6,988 bases of DNA from Escherichia coli (GTDB lineage: Bacteria; Pseudomonadota; Gammaproteobacteria; Enterobacterales; Enterobacteriaceae), in the NCBI RefSeq assembly GCF_024298765.1, contig NZ_CP101214.1. The stretch is one strand, 5' to 3'. Each line of letters begins with the position of its first letter. Position 1 is the stretch's first letter. Shown here piece by piece: positions 1,296 through 6,988 of this stretch. The notes beneath the pieces are model-generated. The model was not told where the DNA came from. It saw only the letters and a program-made list of their open reading frames with translations, and ran no database searches. Made by a program: the position numbers and the translations under genes.

Positions 1296-1574
1296 GTGAA
1301 AAAATGTGTGCCAGTCCTGCTTTTTAGTGTTCTTTCTGCTTCGGTTGCCAGTCATGCGGACAGCAATGTTTTTCAACAAAAGGCCGAGAAGACAAAAAAC
1401 GGCATTGTTGCGGATGTTAATGCCAGACAGAAAATGTTCAGTAACAGACTGAAGATACAACTTCAGATCGATGAGTTGAGAGCAGAGCTGGCTGGCACCA
1501 GAGATGCCCAAAAAAGAGAGGATTTGCGTAAAAAACTGGAGTCTCTGGAGCGGCAAAAGAAATCCTTACGCTGA
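1296..1574 (+). CDS. Small Sec-secreted, highly charged coiled-coil protein of unknown function (92 aa precursor)
   Basis: GTG start at 1296 with AGGA 8 nt upstream. N-terminus MKKCVPVLLFSVLSASVASHA-DS is a typical signal peptide (KK n-region, hydrophobic core, S-H-A cleavage motif). Mature part is Lys/Glu/Arg/Gln-rich and predicted helical. TGA at 1572-1574. Confidence 0.5.
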   Translation: MKKCVPVLLFSVLSASVASHADSNVFQQKAEKTKNGIVADVNARQKMFSNRLKIQLQIDELRAELAGTRDAQKREDLRKKLESLERQKKSLR

Positions 1575-1856
1575 TGGGGGCGTATTTTCCCCGGTTTCTT
1601 CCATAACCTTTTTACCGTTCAGATATTTACGGGCGAGGCGAATGCGTCTTGCCTGGTATACCGCCGAGTAAGCCTGGGTGGGATTCACACCATTACTGAT
1701 TTCACTGACCACATGACGCTGATCAGCCAGTGTCAGCGTGTAAACCTGTTTCTGGATGAGGTCACGGGCTTTGTCATGCTCATATCCGGCAGCAACAAGG
1801 GTGTCGAGAAGTCGTTTGTCTGTTTTGTTCAGTTTATGGCGGGGTGATTTGCTCAC
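1566..1856 (-). CDS. Small basic protein with a putative helix-turn-helix (candidate DNA-binding regulator), unknown function
   Basis: Minus-strand ORF. Best start is GTG at 1856 with GGAG 6 nt upstream (the track's longer ORF starts at an in-frame TTG at 1883). 96 aa. The segment HVVSEISNGVNPTQAYSAVYQARRIRLARKY looks like helix-turn-helix. Converges on the 1296-1574 gene with a 9-bp overlap. Confidence 0.5.
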   Translation of the reverse strand: MSKSPRHKLNKTDKRLLDTLVAAGYEHDKARDLIQKQVYTLTLADQRHVVSEISNGVNPTQAYSAVYQARRIRLARKYLNGKKVMEETGENTPPSA

Positions 1857-1988: not shown

Positions 1989-2054
1989 TTGACATGGACA
2001 ATGCTGAGTAGTAGGTTTTACTGTATATAAAACCAGTGGTTATATATACAGTAT
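1989..2054 (+). promoter_or_regulatory. Colicin operon promoter with tandem overlapping LexA (SOS) boxes
   Basis: -35 TTGACA at 1989-1994, with a -10 candidate in 2009-2020. CTGTATATAAAACCAG (2021-2036) overlaps GTGGTTATATATACAG (2036-2051): the CTGT-N8-ACAG-type double SOS operator typical of colicin promoters. AAGAGG RBS at 2085-2090 precedes the ATG at 2096. Confidence 0.8.
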
Positions 2055-2095: not shown

Positions 2096-3742
2096 ATGGC
2101 TAAAGAACTAAGTGGATATGGACCAACTGCTGGTGAGTCTATGGGGGGAACAGGGGCGAATCTGAATCAGCAAGGTGGAAATAATAATAGTAATAGTGGG
2201 GTTCACTGGGGTGGTGGCTCTGGGCATGGTAATAATGGTGGTCAGGGAAATTCAAATTCATCTGGTTCTACATCAACTGTGATGAAAACCGGTGAGTCAT
2301 ATCTGACTCCGTGGGGTGATGTTGTCATTAATAATGATGGCCTTCCGGTGATGAATGGTATTGTTATGACAGAAGAGAATTCAACTCTGGTTGATAATCC
2401 ATTTGGAGGGGTCTCCAGAGTTCTTAATTCTTTAATTAGTGATATGCCATCACTTTTTGCAGAAAGCTCAGGAAATAACAACAATAACACTGCTTCAGTT
2501 AATACTGCACCAACGAATGCTCAGGTCAGTGATATGGATAAGAGTTCGAAGGTGGTGGGTAATGTAATTAATGAAAAACAAAAGCAGAAGAATAAAATTG
2601 CTACACAGATTAGTGAAAAACAGAAGAAAATCGAGGAGATGAAAAAAGTATTCAAGCATCATTCTTATCATGGTATCACTGATCTTGAGAGGGATGTTGA
2701 TGAGTTGCAAAAAAAATCAAATCAGCTTGATGCAGATATTAGCAAACTTAATTCTTATAAAAATACATTGCAAAGTAAAATTGGTGATGTGAATAAACAG
2801 AAGGAAGCTGAAGAAAAGGTTCGTGAAAATGCAGAGGTCGCTGAACATGAAACTCTTAATGAAGAGAAACAGGCGGTGGCGGAAGCAGAGAAGCGTTTAG
2901 CTGAGGCGAAAGCTGAACTGGCGAAGGCTGAAAGTGATGTACAGAGTAAGCAAGCTACTGTTTCCAGAGTTGCAGGAGAGCTTGAAAACGCTCAGAAGAG
3001 TGTTGACGTGAAGGTCACCGGATTTCCGGGATGGCGTGACGTTCAGAAAAAACTACAGCGTCAGCTTGAAGCTAAGCAGGCTGAGTACTCCGCAGTTGAA
3101 AATGAACTTAAGAATGCTGTTAGTTTCAGGGATGGTAAGGCCGCTGAGGTTAAAGAGGCAGAGCAGAAATTAAAAGAAGCTCAGGATGCTCTTGAAAAGA
3201 GCCAGATAAAAGATGCTGTTGATACTATGGTTGGATTTTATCAATATATAACCGAACAATATGGAGAAAAATACGCAAAAATTGCTCAGGATTTAGCGGA
3301 AAAGTCTAAAGGAAAGAAAATTCAAGGTGTTGATGAAGCTCTGGCAGCATTTGAAAAGTATAAGAATGTACTGGATAAGAAATTCAGTAAGGTTGATCGG
3401 GATGCTATTTTTAATGCGTTAGAGTCTGTTAATTATGATGAGTTATCTAAGAATTTAACGAAGATATCAAAGTCGCTTAAAATCACCAGTCGAGTATCTT
3501 TTCTATATGATGTTGGTTCTGATTTTAAAAATGCAATAGAAACTGGTAACTGGCGACCTTTGTTTGTCACGCTGGAGAAAAGTGCGGTCGATGTAGGTGT
3601 GGCAAAAATTGTGGCATTAATGTTTAGTTTTATTGTTGGTGTGCCTCTTGGTTTCTGGGGGATTGCAATTGTCACAGGTATTGTTTCTTCTTACATAGGG
3701 GATGATGAGTTGAGCAAACTTAATGAGTTGTTAGGGATTTAA
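2096..3742 (+). CDS. cka: Pore-forming colicin, most likely colicin K (548 aa)
   Basis: 548-aa ORF with a Gly/Asn/Ser-rich N-terminal domain (typical of Tol-dependent colicin translocation domains), a long charged coiled-coil central region, and a C-terminal domain with a hydrophobic helical hairpin ([35 protein letters not shown]) typical of pore-forming colicins. Length and N-terminus [15 protein letters not shown]... match my recollection of colicin K. SOS promoter upstream, immunity and lysis genes downstream. Confidence 0.85.
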
Positions 3743-4029
3743 TTTCTCTTTAGAGTGTAATATATGAAACTTGGCAATCCTACTGGGATTGCCATTAATA
3801 AATAAAACAATGCAGATAACTTGCATAAGTACCAGGGTTCTTTTTTTAACTTTGTATTTTCTTTGATATATCTAGATATGGTTAATTTAGAGTATGGATA
3901 TAGCAATACATGTATTGATGATATAAATATAAATAACAAAGGAGTGTTATCATTCTCGTTAAATATTAAAATAAGAATCCATGGTATAAGTGATTCAGGT
4001 AAATTATGTAGGTAGTATTTTAAATGCAT
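3739..4029 (-). CDS. cki: Colicin immunity protein (integral membrane, 96 aa), convergent with the colicin gene
   Basis: Minus-strand ORF immediately downstream of and opposite to the colicin gene, the arrangement typical of pore-forming colicin immunity genes. Very hydrophobic protein with several predicted TM segments ([35 protein letters not shown]). Its stop codon overlaps the colicin stop at TTAA 3739-3742. Confidence 0.85.
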
Positions 4030-4058
4030 AAGTATTTTTACTTTTGTTGGAAAGAAAT

Positions 4059-4190
4059 ATGAAAATAATAATTTTTCTAATTACAATATTATTCTTGTCA
4101 GGATGTCAAGCAAACTATATTCGTGATGTACAAGGAGGAACCGTTGCACCATCTTCGTCTTCTGAACTGACGGGGATCGCGGTTCAGTAG
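4059..4190 (+). CDS. ckl: Colicin lysis (bacteriocin release) lipoprotein, 43 aa
   Basis: ATG at 4059, TAG at 4188-4190; not in the ORF track because it is short. [43 protein letters not shown] has a signal peptide with an L-S-G-C lipobox and the conserved mature region of colicin lysis proteins. Last gene of the colicin operon. Confidence 0.85.
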
Positions 4191-4199
4191 AAAAGATCA

Positions 4200-4226
4200 A
4201 AGGATCTTCTTGAGATCCTTTTTTTC
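4200..4226 (+). terminator. Putative rho-independent terminator at the end of the colicin operon (overlaps the RNA II promoter)
   Basis: Inverted repeat AAGGATC (4200-4206) / GATCCTT (4214-4220) with a 7-nt loop, followed by a T-run (4219-4225), 10 bp after the lysis gene stop. Confidence 0.55.
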
Positions 4227-4238
4227 TGCGCGTAATCT
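4210..4238 (+). promoter_or_regulatory. RNA II (replication primer) promoter
   Basis: -35 TTGAGA (4210-4215), 17-bp spacer, -10 TAATCT (4233-4238). Same architecture as the pMB1/ColE1 RNA II promoter in pBR322, recalled from memory. Confidence 0.75.
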
Positions 4239-4249
4239 GCTGCCTGTAA

Positions 4250-4352
4250 ACGAAAAAACCGCCTGGGGAGGCGGTTTAGTCGAAGGTTAAGTCAGTTGGG
4301 GACTGCTTAACCGGGTAACTGGCTTTAGTGGAGCACAGATACCAAATGCTGT
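4250..4352 (-). ncRNA. RNA I antisense copy-number control RNA (about 100 nt)
   Basis: Minus-strand promoter: -35 TTGAAG (complement of 4383-4388), 18-bp spacer, -10 TACACT (complement of 4359-4364), start near 4352 (ACAGCAUUUGG...). 3' end has a hairpin, AACCGCCT / AGGCGGTT at 4257-4276, followed on the minus strand by a U-run. Fully complementary to the 5' end of RNA II. Confidence 0.8.
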
Positions 4353-4358
4353 CCTTCC

Positions 4359-4388
4359 AGTGTAGCCGCTATAAGGCTTCAACTTCAA
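4359..4388 (-). promoter_or_regulatory. RNA I promoter
   Basis: TTGAAG -35 and TACACT -10 on the minus strand with an 18-bp spacer, arranged as in pBR322 RNA I. Confidence 0.7.
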
Positions 4389-4784
4389 GAGTTCTGCGTA
4401 TCTAAATCCACTATCCAGTTACCAATGGCTGCTGCCAGTGGCGTTAAGTCGTGTCTTACCGGGTTGGACTCAAGACGATAGTTACCGGATAAGGCGCAGC
4501 GGTCGGGCTGAACGGGGGGTTCGTGCACACAGCCCAGCTTGGAGCGAACGACCTACACCGAACTGAGATACCAACAGCGTGAGCTATGAGAAAGCGCCAC
4601 GCTTCCCAAAGGGAGAAAGGCGGACAGGTATCCGGTAAGCGGCAGGGTCGGAACAGGAGAGCGCACGAGGGAGCCACCAGGGGGAAACGCCTGGTATCTT
4701 TAAGTCCTGTCGGGTTTCGCCACCTCTGACTTGAGCGTCGGTTTTTGTGATGCTCGTCAGGGGGGCGGAGCCTATGGAAAAACG

Positions 4785-5430: not shown

Positions 5431-5778
5431 ATGATACCGGTGAAACGCGAAAGGATGCTCACGATACGGGTCACGGATGAGGAACATGCGCGGCTGCTGG
5501 CACGTTGTGAGGGAAAACAACTTGCGTCATGGATGCGTAAGGTCTGCCTGGGGGCACCGCCATCGAAAACGTCAGGTCTTCCGACACTGGCACCGCCGCT
5601 GTTGCGCCAGTTCGCTTCGGTCGGCAATAACCTGAATCAGATAGCCCGGAAGATAAACAGCGGACAGTGGTCGGGGCATGACCGGGTTCATGTGGTGGCT
5701 GCACTGATGGCCATCGGACGTGAACTGAGTGAGCTGAGGGATGAGGTCCGTAAACAGGGAGAACGGGATGATAGTTAA
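5431..5778 (+). CDS. mbeC: MbeC/MobC-family mobilisation accessory protein (likely ribbon-helix-helix)
   Basis: ATG at 5431 has GGAGG 6 nt upstream; a second in-frame ATG at 5455 (MLTIRVTDEEHARLLARCEGKQLASWMRK...) would give 107 aa. N-terminus matches the MbeC remnant I recall in pBR322. Divergent from rom; its stop region overlaps the mbeA start. Confidence 0.8.
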   Translation: MIPVKRERMLTIRVTDEEHARLLARCEGKQLASWMRKVCLGAPPSKTSGLPTLAPPLLRQFASVGNNLNQIARKINSGQWSGHDRVHVVAALMAIGRELSELRDEVRKQGERDDS

Positions 5779-6988
5779 GTTTCATGCCAGGGGAAAAGGC
5801 GGTGGCAGTGGTCCGGTTGATTACCTGCTGGGCCGGGAGCGTAACCGGGAAGGGGCGAGAGTTCTGCGGGGTGCTCCCGAAGAGGTGCGGGAACTCATCG
5901 ATGCCACGCCGTTTGCGAAAAAATACACCTCGGGGGTTCTGTCTTTTGCAGAGCAGACCCTGCCACCGGGAGAGCGTGAAAGGGTGATGGAGAGCTTTGA
6001 GCGGGTACTGATGCCCGGTCTTGAAAAAAATCAGTACAGCATCCTGTGGGTGGAGCACCAGGACAAGGGGCGTCTTGAGCTGAATTTTGTCATCCCGAAT
6101 ATGGAGCTGGCGAGCGGAAAACGGCTCCAGCCCTATTACGACCGAGCAGACCGTCCGCGAATCAATGCCTGGCAGACACTGGTGAATCACCATTACGGGC
6201 TGCACGACCCGAACGCACCGGAGAACAGGCGGACACTTGTCACCCCGAATAATCTGCCGAAAGCGAAACAGGAGGCCGCAGAAGCGATTACGAGGGGACT
6301 GGAGGCTCTTTACCATGCCGGAGCACTAAAAACGCGTCAGGATGTCACTGAGGCGCTTACAGCGGCAGGTTTTGAGGTTGTGAGGACAACCAGGAGCAGT
6401 ATCAGTATCGCCGACCCGGAGGGTGGGCGTAATCTCAGGCTGAAAGGGGCGCTGTATGAGCAATCTTTTACAAATGGGGACAGACTTCGAGAAGAAACTG
6501 AAAGAGCGTGCCGTCTCTACAGAGAACATGCTGAACAGCGAGTTCAGGAAGCTCGAAGCGTCTGTAGACAGGGAACTGAACTTAAACGGGCAGAAAATCA
6601 GAGACGCTATCAGCGCACACACAGCAGCGGTGAAAGAACAACTGGAGACGCTGAACAGTGCCGTGAACGCGCAGTTCAGCGCCACAGAGAACGAACTGGC
6701 CCGGCGGCAGGAAGAGCTGCTCTGGAAGCTGGTCAAAGGGCGGATACTGTACCCGTCGCTGACGGCGCTTTGCGTCACGGGCGGGATTTTTCTGGCGTCA
6801 TGGGGGCTGATTCAGTGGCAGGAAAGCCGGATTGCGGCGAACATCCTGGCTATCAGGGACCAGGAAGAGACGCTGGCGAAACTCCGGGAAAAAACATGGG
6901 GTGTGACGTATCACGAGGGCAGGAACGGGAAATTTCTGGTGTTGCCGTCCGGGGTGAAGGGGGAAAACAACTGGACGGTGGAGAAGAA
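5768..6988 (+). CDS. mbeA: MbeA/MobA-family relaxase, 5' portion (ORF runs off the window end)
   Basis: ATG at 5768 overlapping the end of mbeC. N-terminus MIVKFHARGKGGGSGPVDYLLGRERNREGARVLRGAPEEV is typical of ColE1-family (MOB HEN-type) relaxases. No stop in frame through 6988 (407 codons), so it is absent from the ORF track. Confidence 0.9.
   Translation, partial: MIVKFHARGKGGGSGPVDYLLGRERNREGARVLRGAPEEVRELIDATPFAKKYTSGVLSFAEQTLPPGERERVMESFERVLMPGLEKNQYSILWVEHQDKGRLELNFVIPNMELASGKRLQPYYDRADRPRINAWQTLVNHHYGLHDPNAPENRRTLVTPNNLPKAKQEAAEAITRGLEALYHAGALKTRQDVTEALTAAGFEVVRTTRSSISIADPEGGRNLRLKGALYEQSFTNGDRLREETERACRLYREHAEQRVQEARSVCRQGTELKRAENQRRYQRTHSSGERTTGDAEQCRERAVQRHRERTGPAAGRAALEAGQRADTVPVADGALRHGRDFSGVMGADSVAGKPDCGEHPGYQGPGRDAGETPGKNMGCDVSRGQEREISGVAVRGEGGKQLDGGEE
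6456..6988 (+). CDS. mbeB: MbeB/MobB-family mobilisation protein, nested in an alternate frame within mbeA (3' end beyond the window edge)
   Basis: ATG at 6456 (alternative in-frame ATG at 6474). MSNLLQMGTDFEKKLKERAVSTENMLNSEFRKLEASVDRELNLNGQKIRDAI..., with a predicted TM segment (ILYPSLTALCVTGGIFLASWGLI). Open to the window end. If the replicon is circular the frame would stop at window positions 26-28, just before mbeD. Confidence 0.65.
   Translation, partial: MSNLLQMGTDFEKKLKERAVSTENMLNSEFRKLEASVDRELNLNGQKIRDAISAHTAAVKEQLETLNSAVNAQFSATENELARRQEELLWKLVKGRILYPSLTALCVTGGIFLASWGLIQWQESRIAANILAIRDQEETLAKLREKTWGVTYHEGRNGKFLVLPSGVKGENNWTVEK

Follow-up and report, generated by a model that had tools for sequence, protein, structure and literature searches.

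The tail-to-tail junction of the colicin K operon on a pColK-type plasmid: a shared TTAA stop tetramer and a hairpin within the immunity frame

The colicin K operon and its plasmid

The DNA analysed here, a stretch of 6988 bases (referred to as the window), contains a colicin gene, cka, a lysis gene, ckl, and, between them on the opposite strand, an immunity gene, cki, which converges on cka and ends on the same TTAA tetramer (Table 1). The window is matched over its full length, at 99.9% identity and 100% coverage, by many complete plasmids of 6988 bp from E. coli, Salmonella and Shigella, and its DNA is 99.6% identical to that of pColK-K235 (NC_006881) when the IS2 insertion in the latter is set aside. 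Judged by these full-length matches, the window is a complete small ColE1-type plasmid of the pColK type, which encodes colicin K.

Table 1. Positions of the genes and predicted elements of the colicin K operon and the adjoining replicon in the window.
Feature	Position	Strand	Description
LexA (SOS) box 1, CTGTATATAAAACCAG	2021-2036		Upstream of cka; CTGT-N9-CAG pattern, 0 mismatches
LexA (SOS) box 2	2036-2051	-	1 mismatch to CTGT-N9-CAG; one base in common with box 1
cka	2096-3742	+	Pore-forming colicin K, 548 aa (ORF list); stop TAA at 3740-3742
TTAA, both stop codons	3739-3742		cka TAA at 3740-3742; cki TAA as complement of 3739-3741
cki	3739-4029	-	Colicin K immunity protein, 96 aa (ORF; RefSeq annotation)
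9-bp hairpin, TGGCAATCC-N5-GGATTGCCA	3772-3794		Inside the cki ORF, codons M-A-I-P-V-G-L-P; perfect inverted repeat, 100% complementary
ckl	4059-4190	+	Colicin release (lysis) lipoprotein, 43 aa; Pfam Lysis_col PF02402, E=4e-24; lipobox LSGC
Best candidate cki promoter, inside ckl	4080-4109	-	TTGACA (4109-4104), 18-nt spacer, TGTAAT (4085-4080); top score in our own looser consensus scan
Hairpin and T-run after ckl	4199-4228	+	Terminator-like, 10 pairs followed by TTTTTCTGCG; also present in the predicted fold
RNAI	4250-4350		Rfam; sole Rfam match in the window

The cka product carries the Pfam Colicin pore domain (PF01024, residues 364-545/548, E=9e-32) together with a ColA_N domain, and the 3' end of the gene reads ...GGG ATT TAA, which corresponds to the protein C-terminus ...LGI. 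Near-identical plasmids (99.6-99.9% DNA identity) carry the cka annotation on the same ORF. The immunity gene occupies the 316-nt spacer between cka and ckl (3743-4058); its product is matched over the full length (1-96/96, E=2e-56) by the Pfam family CKI (PF17500), and its end reads ...AAG AGA AAT TAA, so that the protein terminates in ...KRN. In pColK-K235, ckl is annotated at the matching position (4490-4621). Upstream of cka, the CTGT-N9-CAG pattern predicts a double LexA box at 2021-2051. A pore-forming colicin, a Cki gene on the opposite strand, a lysis lipoprotein and a double LexA box together define a colicin K operon, and the ORFs and Pfam matches bear out the gene identities, orientations and coordinates that the initial annotation had given for the colicin, immunity and lysis genes.

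Colicin genes typically carry two overlapping SOS boxes, and single-cell work on pColK-K235 found most cells to express the immunity gene and a small fraction to express cka (PMC2994835), which fits a constitutive cki combined with an SOS-repressed cka. The terminator-like hairpin and T-run behind ckl likely form the end of the cka-ckl transcript.

Clustering at 90% identity yields only 13 Cki-family clusters among 5.8 billion proteins, and every named cluster belongs to E. coli, all of them of the K/10/5 type; distant Cki relatives suitable for a covariation test of the hairpin described below were not found in this set. A tblastn search of plasmids with ImmE1 returned almost exclusively relatives of more than 90% identity, plus the colicin FY immunity protein. 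Cki-family genes also occur as orphans lacking a colicin gene, on the large conjugative plasmids CP061837.1 (IncF, 116 kb; locus L007, 2501-2791) and NZ_CP027324.1 (IncK, 128 kb; locus L019, 1502-1792). In both, the colicin gene has given way to unrelated DNA, which comes within ~20 nt of the immunity stop. The immunity ORF is preserved together with its hairpin, and the lysis gene beside them is whole or truncated. In sequence, these modules look like immunity-only remnants.

The annotation of a 6988-bp twin plasmid adds rop, mobC, a truncated mbeA, mbeB, mbeD and an Exc2 lipoprotein gene to this inventory. According to the annotation of this plasmid of identical length, the mbeA relaxase gene (window 5768-6085) is a truncated pseudogene; the plasmid is nevertheless typed as mobilizable, with mobC, mbeB and mbeD intact. 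Just past RNAI, at 4385-4528 on the minus strand, RefSeq places a 47-aa 'replication initiation protein', which is probably a spurious call, the region being what we take to be RNAII and the origin of the ColE1-type replicon. A second convergent pair, 1296-1574 (+) and 1566-1856 (-), consists of conserved hypothetical genes with a 9-nt overlap, of which one product has 92 aa and a signal-peptide-like start and the other 96 aa; neither has a Pfam match. K-variant, colicin 10, 5-like and S4 plasmids have the same pair directly upstream of their colicin gene.

The shared stop tetramer and its relatives

The overlap of the cka and cki stops on TTAA, to which the initial annotation had drawn attention, is confirmed by the sequence, the ORFs, the Pfam matches and the RefSeq annotation. 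It comprises the two stop codons and one base of each last sense codon, nothing more, and because the overlap takes in only this one base per last sense codon, neither protein constrains the other there. The same 4-nt overlap is present in the RefSeq records of pColK-K235 (cka 2527-4173, cki 4170-4460) and of the 6988-bp twin plasmid (cka 4477-6123, cki 6120-6410). The cka/cki overlap is therefore an ordinary and already annotated layout of a well-known toxin plasmid.

A colicin gene that ends in ATT TAA automatically puts a TAA into one of the minus-strand frames, and an opposite ORF that uses this frame (1 in 3) has to stop there. In the frame of cki, the first stop past the hairpin is indeed the one at 3741-3739, with none earlier. 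When overlaps between convergent genes were surveyed in 58 prokaryotic genomes, their length distribution jumped visibly at 4 bp, and the tetramers able to end two opposite genes are CTAA, TTAA, CTAG and TTAG (PMC2174442). The TTAA at 3739-3742 falls into this class, defined as [CT]TA[AG], in which bases 2-4 provide the plus-strand stop and bases 1-3 the complement of the minus-strand stop. The tetramer is real and stably inherited; yet, because the minus-strand TAA arises automatically and 4-base convergent overlaps are a common class, it is not improbable and needs no special explanation.

Junctions were compared across related operons read from annotated plasmids. A 4-nt overlap is present in the colicin 10, colicin 5-like, ColE1 (TTAA) and E1-like operons, and in a colicin K variant in which the tetramer is TTAG, the colicin stop now being TAG and the immunity stop still TAA. 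The stops do not overlap in the operons for Ib-type colicin (17-nt gap), Ia colicin (21 nt), colicin A (19 nt), colicin S4 (27 nt), colicin B (17 nt) and colicin FY (13 nt). In the five gapped operons whose junction sequence was read (A, S4, B, Ia and Ib), a terminator-like hairpin flanked by A/T runs lies in or across the gap, an example being AAAAGGCAGTGTTACTGCCTTTTTTTT, which follows the colicin stop in ColA. Among K-type plasmids, 48 records carry the 141-nt junction at 99% identity or more. Within the E1/K/5/10 group, the pore domains are ~60% identical, whereas Cki and ImmE1 share just 28% identity. On the evidence of these junctions, the stop overlap is a trait inherited within one clade of pore-forming colicin operons, E1/K/5/10.

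In the Ib-type (locus L010, 2049-2069) and Ia-type (locus L011, 2073-2097) operons, the immunity stop codon lies within the terminator hairpin. Read as a sequence series, this hairpin overlapping the end of the immunity ORF is an intermediate between the ColA layout and the E1/K layout.

The hairpin in the cki frame and the cki promoter

A more informative feature than the TTAA is the conserved hairpin at 3772-3794 in the cki frame. It begins 29 nt downstream of the cka stop and is the dominant element of the predicted fold of either strand (z = -3.0 and -3.4). Its core, GCAATCC/GGATTGC, is unchanged in K, 10, 5-like and E1, and next to the core the K group has a G:C pair and E1 an A:T pair; both sides have changed in E1, where the stem extends to 13 bp. 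This covariation amounts to one G:C to A:T change separating two lineages. When the 14-codon segment was recoded synonymously 5000 times according to the codon usage of the local genes, 48-70 of the 5000 recodings (1.0-1.4%) reached the stability of the real Cki segment and 0/5000 that of the ImmE1 segment. Because the natural segments are more stable than 98.6-99% (Cki) and 100% (ImmE1) of their recodings, the hairpin is, by this computational measure, preserved in the nucleotide sequence itself, in addition to the protein code and against synonymous drift.

In convergent overlapping gene pairs, any terminator must sit within one of the coding sequences, as is the case in E. coli (PMC2174442), and the ColE2 operon has a terminator upstream of its lysis gene that permits partial read-through (PMC4161892). 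A canonical intrinsic terminator, i.e. a stable GC-containing hairpin followed directly by a U-run, is not found at 3772-3794. The hairpin was rejected as a canonical cka terminator, since in the cka direction no U-run follows it (the sequence is UUAAUAAAUAAAAC). In the cki direction, a loose scan detected a weak U-rich tail, AGUUUCAUAU, inside the cki ORF. A role as cki terminator was likewise rejected, because the hairpin lies ~20 nt before the cki stop and the tail is not conserved, being broken in the E1-like and 5-like loci. The structure may instead act like a 3'-end hairpin or an attenuator, and by analogy it probably corresponds to the intergenic hairpins found in the A, B, S4, Ia and Ib operons. 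An actual role at the cka 3' end or in read-through into ckl is suggested only tentatively, and we rate it as somewhat short of an even prospect.

Only 29 nt lie between the ATG codons of cki (4029) and ckl (4059), and the cki promoter must therefore reach at least partly into ckl. The best candidate is located inside ckl; K, the K variant, 10 and 5-like all carry it at an equivalent position, and E1 does not. Its -10 element, TGTAAT, is non-consensus, without A at position 2, and for this reason the candidate was missed by a stricter promoter scan, which returned no site upstream of cki and 6 sites overall, compared with 7.6 expected from shuffled sequence. Both the 29-nt spacing and the position of this K/10/5-conserved candidate agree with the earlier guess that the promoter would be found on the minus strand within 4030-4060 or inside the lysis gene.

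The perfect -35 hexamer TTGACA (4104-4109, minus strand) is the antisense of the TGT-CAA (Cys-Gln) lipobox codons of ckl. K, 10 and 5-like all have this hexamer; the E1-like locus has CTGACA instead. The hexamer may be conserved on account of the protein, and the conserved lipobox may double as the -35 element of the immunity promoter.

On the cki-sense strand just past the cki stop (3552-3709, minus), C makes up 31-32% and G 9-13% in 78-nt windows. This segment is antisense to the 3' end of cka that encodes the hydrophobic helical hairpin of the pore domain, and its C/G ratio is 2.4-3.4. No intrinsic terminator was seen on the cki-sense strand between 3772 and 2078. It is plausible from this composition that the segment is a Rho loading region and that cki transcription ends Rho-dependently in the antisense of the cka 3' end.

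Interpretation and comparison with known colicin operons

With regard to identity, anatomy and ancestry, we consider it highly probable that the locus is a tail-to-tail junction of the kind normal for the colicin K operon of pColK plasmids. In this operon, the SOS-repressed cka-ckl unit is read rightward, and cki, located between its two genes, leftward from a promoter of its own. In the E1/K/5/10 group, the immunity frame runs through the hairpin that follows the colicin gene and continues for about ten more codons, up to the first in-frame stop, which is provided by the complement of the last base of the colicin coding sequence and the first two bases of its TAA. On this reading, the TTAA is an inherited consequence of the compact layout, free of coding conflict, and not a device in itself. 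As consequences of the layout, the cki RNA should be fully complementary to the RNA of the cka-ckl spacer, and polymerases from the two promoters should meet head-on between ~3740 and ~4080. Strong SOS-induced transcription of cka would probably lower that of cki, as reported for ColA. The hairpin may delimit or protect the short cka RNA at its 3' end and keep read-through into ckl low.

From the TTAA, the initial annotation had concluded that cki is transcribed entirely antisense to the 3' region of the colicin mRNA and to the spacer. With respect to the spacer, this holds: cki lies within these 316 nt, and its RNA is complementary to cka-ckl read-through RNA. The derivation from the tetramer has to be given up, because the geometry comes from the gene order, which is common to the A, S4, B, Ia and Ib operons that lack the overlap. 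The statement on the colicin 3' region needs a qualification as well: cki shares with cka only the stop and one coding base, and the reach of the cki RNA into cka depends on where cki transcription ends.

As to the idea of interference, the opposed orientation of cka, with its upstream LexA boxes, and cki is certain, and the promoter of cki is represented by the consensus candidate TTGACA-18-TGTAAT. For ColA, a passage in PMC5001618 that cites Lloubes et al. 1986 states that the convergent immunity gene is freed from interference when LexA represses the colicin gene. By this analogy, interference at the K locus is a reasonable idea with a precedent and not a new one, and we see about an even chance that induced cka transcription interferes with cki. 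Text searches of the literature on cki regulation, on antisense or interference in colicin operons and on a T1 terminator of pore-former operons returned nothing specific to ColK.

An alternative is neutral compaction without any cross-talk, in which cki and cka-ckl would work independently, the overlap would be an ancestral accident and the hairpin would serve RNA stability only. Such a view is in line with the frequency of 4-base convergent overlaps, which are common and need no function (PMC2174442), with the absence of coding constraint at the overlap, with the fact that the A, B, S4, Ia and Ib operons work with the same gene order and no overlap, and with the observation that cki is on in most cells although cka lies opposite to it (PMC2994835). 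It conflicts with the interference measured in the equivalent ColA arrangement, as far as this is related in PMC5001618, and with the position of the cki promoter in or beside ckl, which makes head-on traffic unavoidable once cka is induced. We regard neutral compaction as rather unlikely.

A further reading is a two-way safety device built into the E1/K/5/10 junction, consisting of the in-frame hairpin and a cki promoter in ckl. The hairpin would determine the amount of cka transcription that continues into the lysis gene, and the constitutive cki transcript would start in ckl at the TTGACA antisense to the lipobox. Its leader of ~45 nt would, speculatively, be complementary to the ribosome-binding site and start codon of ckl and could keep stray ckl translation silent as long as the cells are not induced; on induction, cka transcription would overrun the cki promoter and end this silencing. 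We regard this scheme as unlikely.

It is very improbable that the TTAA overlap was itself selected, either for an interaction of transcripts or ribosomes at the stops or because it guarantees antisense pairing to the colicin 3' end. The overlap has survived in E1, K, 5 and 10 despite an immunity protein identity of 28%, an indel of one codon between hairpin and stop and a TAA to TAG variant; however, an in-frame indel and a change from TAA to TAG keep the overlap automatically, so that its persistence does not speak for selection. The related operons of colicins Ia, Ib, A, S4, B and FY lack it, and the orphan cki genes keep their stop after colicin loss, the tetramer being TTTA in L007 and TTAA followed by a different next base in L019. 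We also know of no mechanism that reads a shared stop tetramer, which further counts against selection. That the overlap is an annotation artefact, with the true end of cki or cka elsewhere, has practically no probability, as nothing specific speaks for it and the reading frames fix the stop codons, CKI is aligned over 1-96/96, the pore domain extends to residue 545/548 and the first in-frame cki stop past the hairpin is at 3741-3739.

The normal colicin K junction thus remains our preferred reading. The discovery value of the shared tetramer is small: the layout can be found in publicly available annotation and belongs to a kind of gene overlap that is well described, and the interference idea was tested decades ago in the sister plasmid ColA, according to the citing passage mentioned above. 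What the overlap does mark is the E1, K, 5 and 10 clade, in which the hairpin behind the colicin gene has been absorbed into the immunity frame. For the balance between colicin, immunity and lysis, the features to test are the hairpin and the candidate cki promoter in ckl, not the TTAA.

Set against known systems, the cka/cki TTAA is a textbook instance of the generic 4-nt convergent overlaps of prokaryotes and does not differ from them. The closest known system, pColK-K235, has the same three genes and the same 4-nt overlap, and its junction and hairpin are 100% identical to those of the window; the additional IS2 enlarges it to 8318 bp, compared with 6988 bp here, and makes no difference at the junction. 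ColE1 (cea-imm-kil) likewise has a convergent immunity gene between the colicin and lysis genes and the same TTAA overlap. Its colicin also ends in ...LGI*, and its immunity protein in ...KNN*, compared with ...KRN* in Cki. As in K, the immunity frame contains the core GCAATCC/GGATTGC, which there specifies A-I-P-x-G-L. The two immunity proteins are only 28% identical and belong to different Pfam and NCBI families. ColE1 further differs in its 13-bp stem, which is followed by UUUUU in the imm direction, in a hairpin-to-stop distance that deviates by one codon and in the lack of the K-type promoter candidate.

Colicin 10 (cta-cti-ctl) and the 5-like operons have Cki-family immunity proteins at 62-67% identity and the same overlap, stem and candidate promoter as K; the loop sequence of the hairpin differs, and so do the N-terminal halves of the colicins (490 aa compared with 548 aa). 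ColA (caa-cai-cal) shares with K the gene order, the orientation and a LexA-controlled colicin promoter. In contrast to K, however, it encodes an immunity protein of another type (177 aa, annotated only as 'colicin immunity protein'), and its stops are separated by a gap of 19 nt, in which the hairpin lies between an A-run and a T-run and outside any reading frame.
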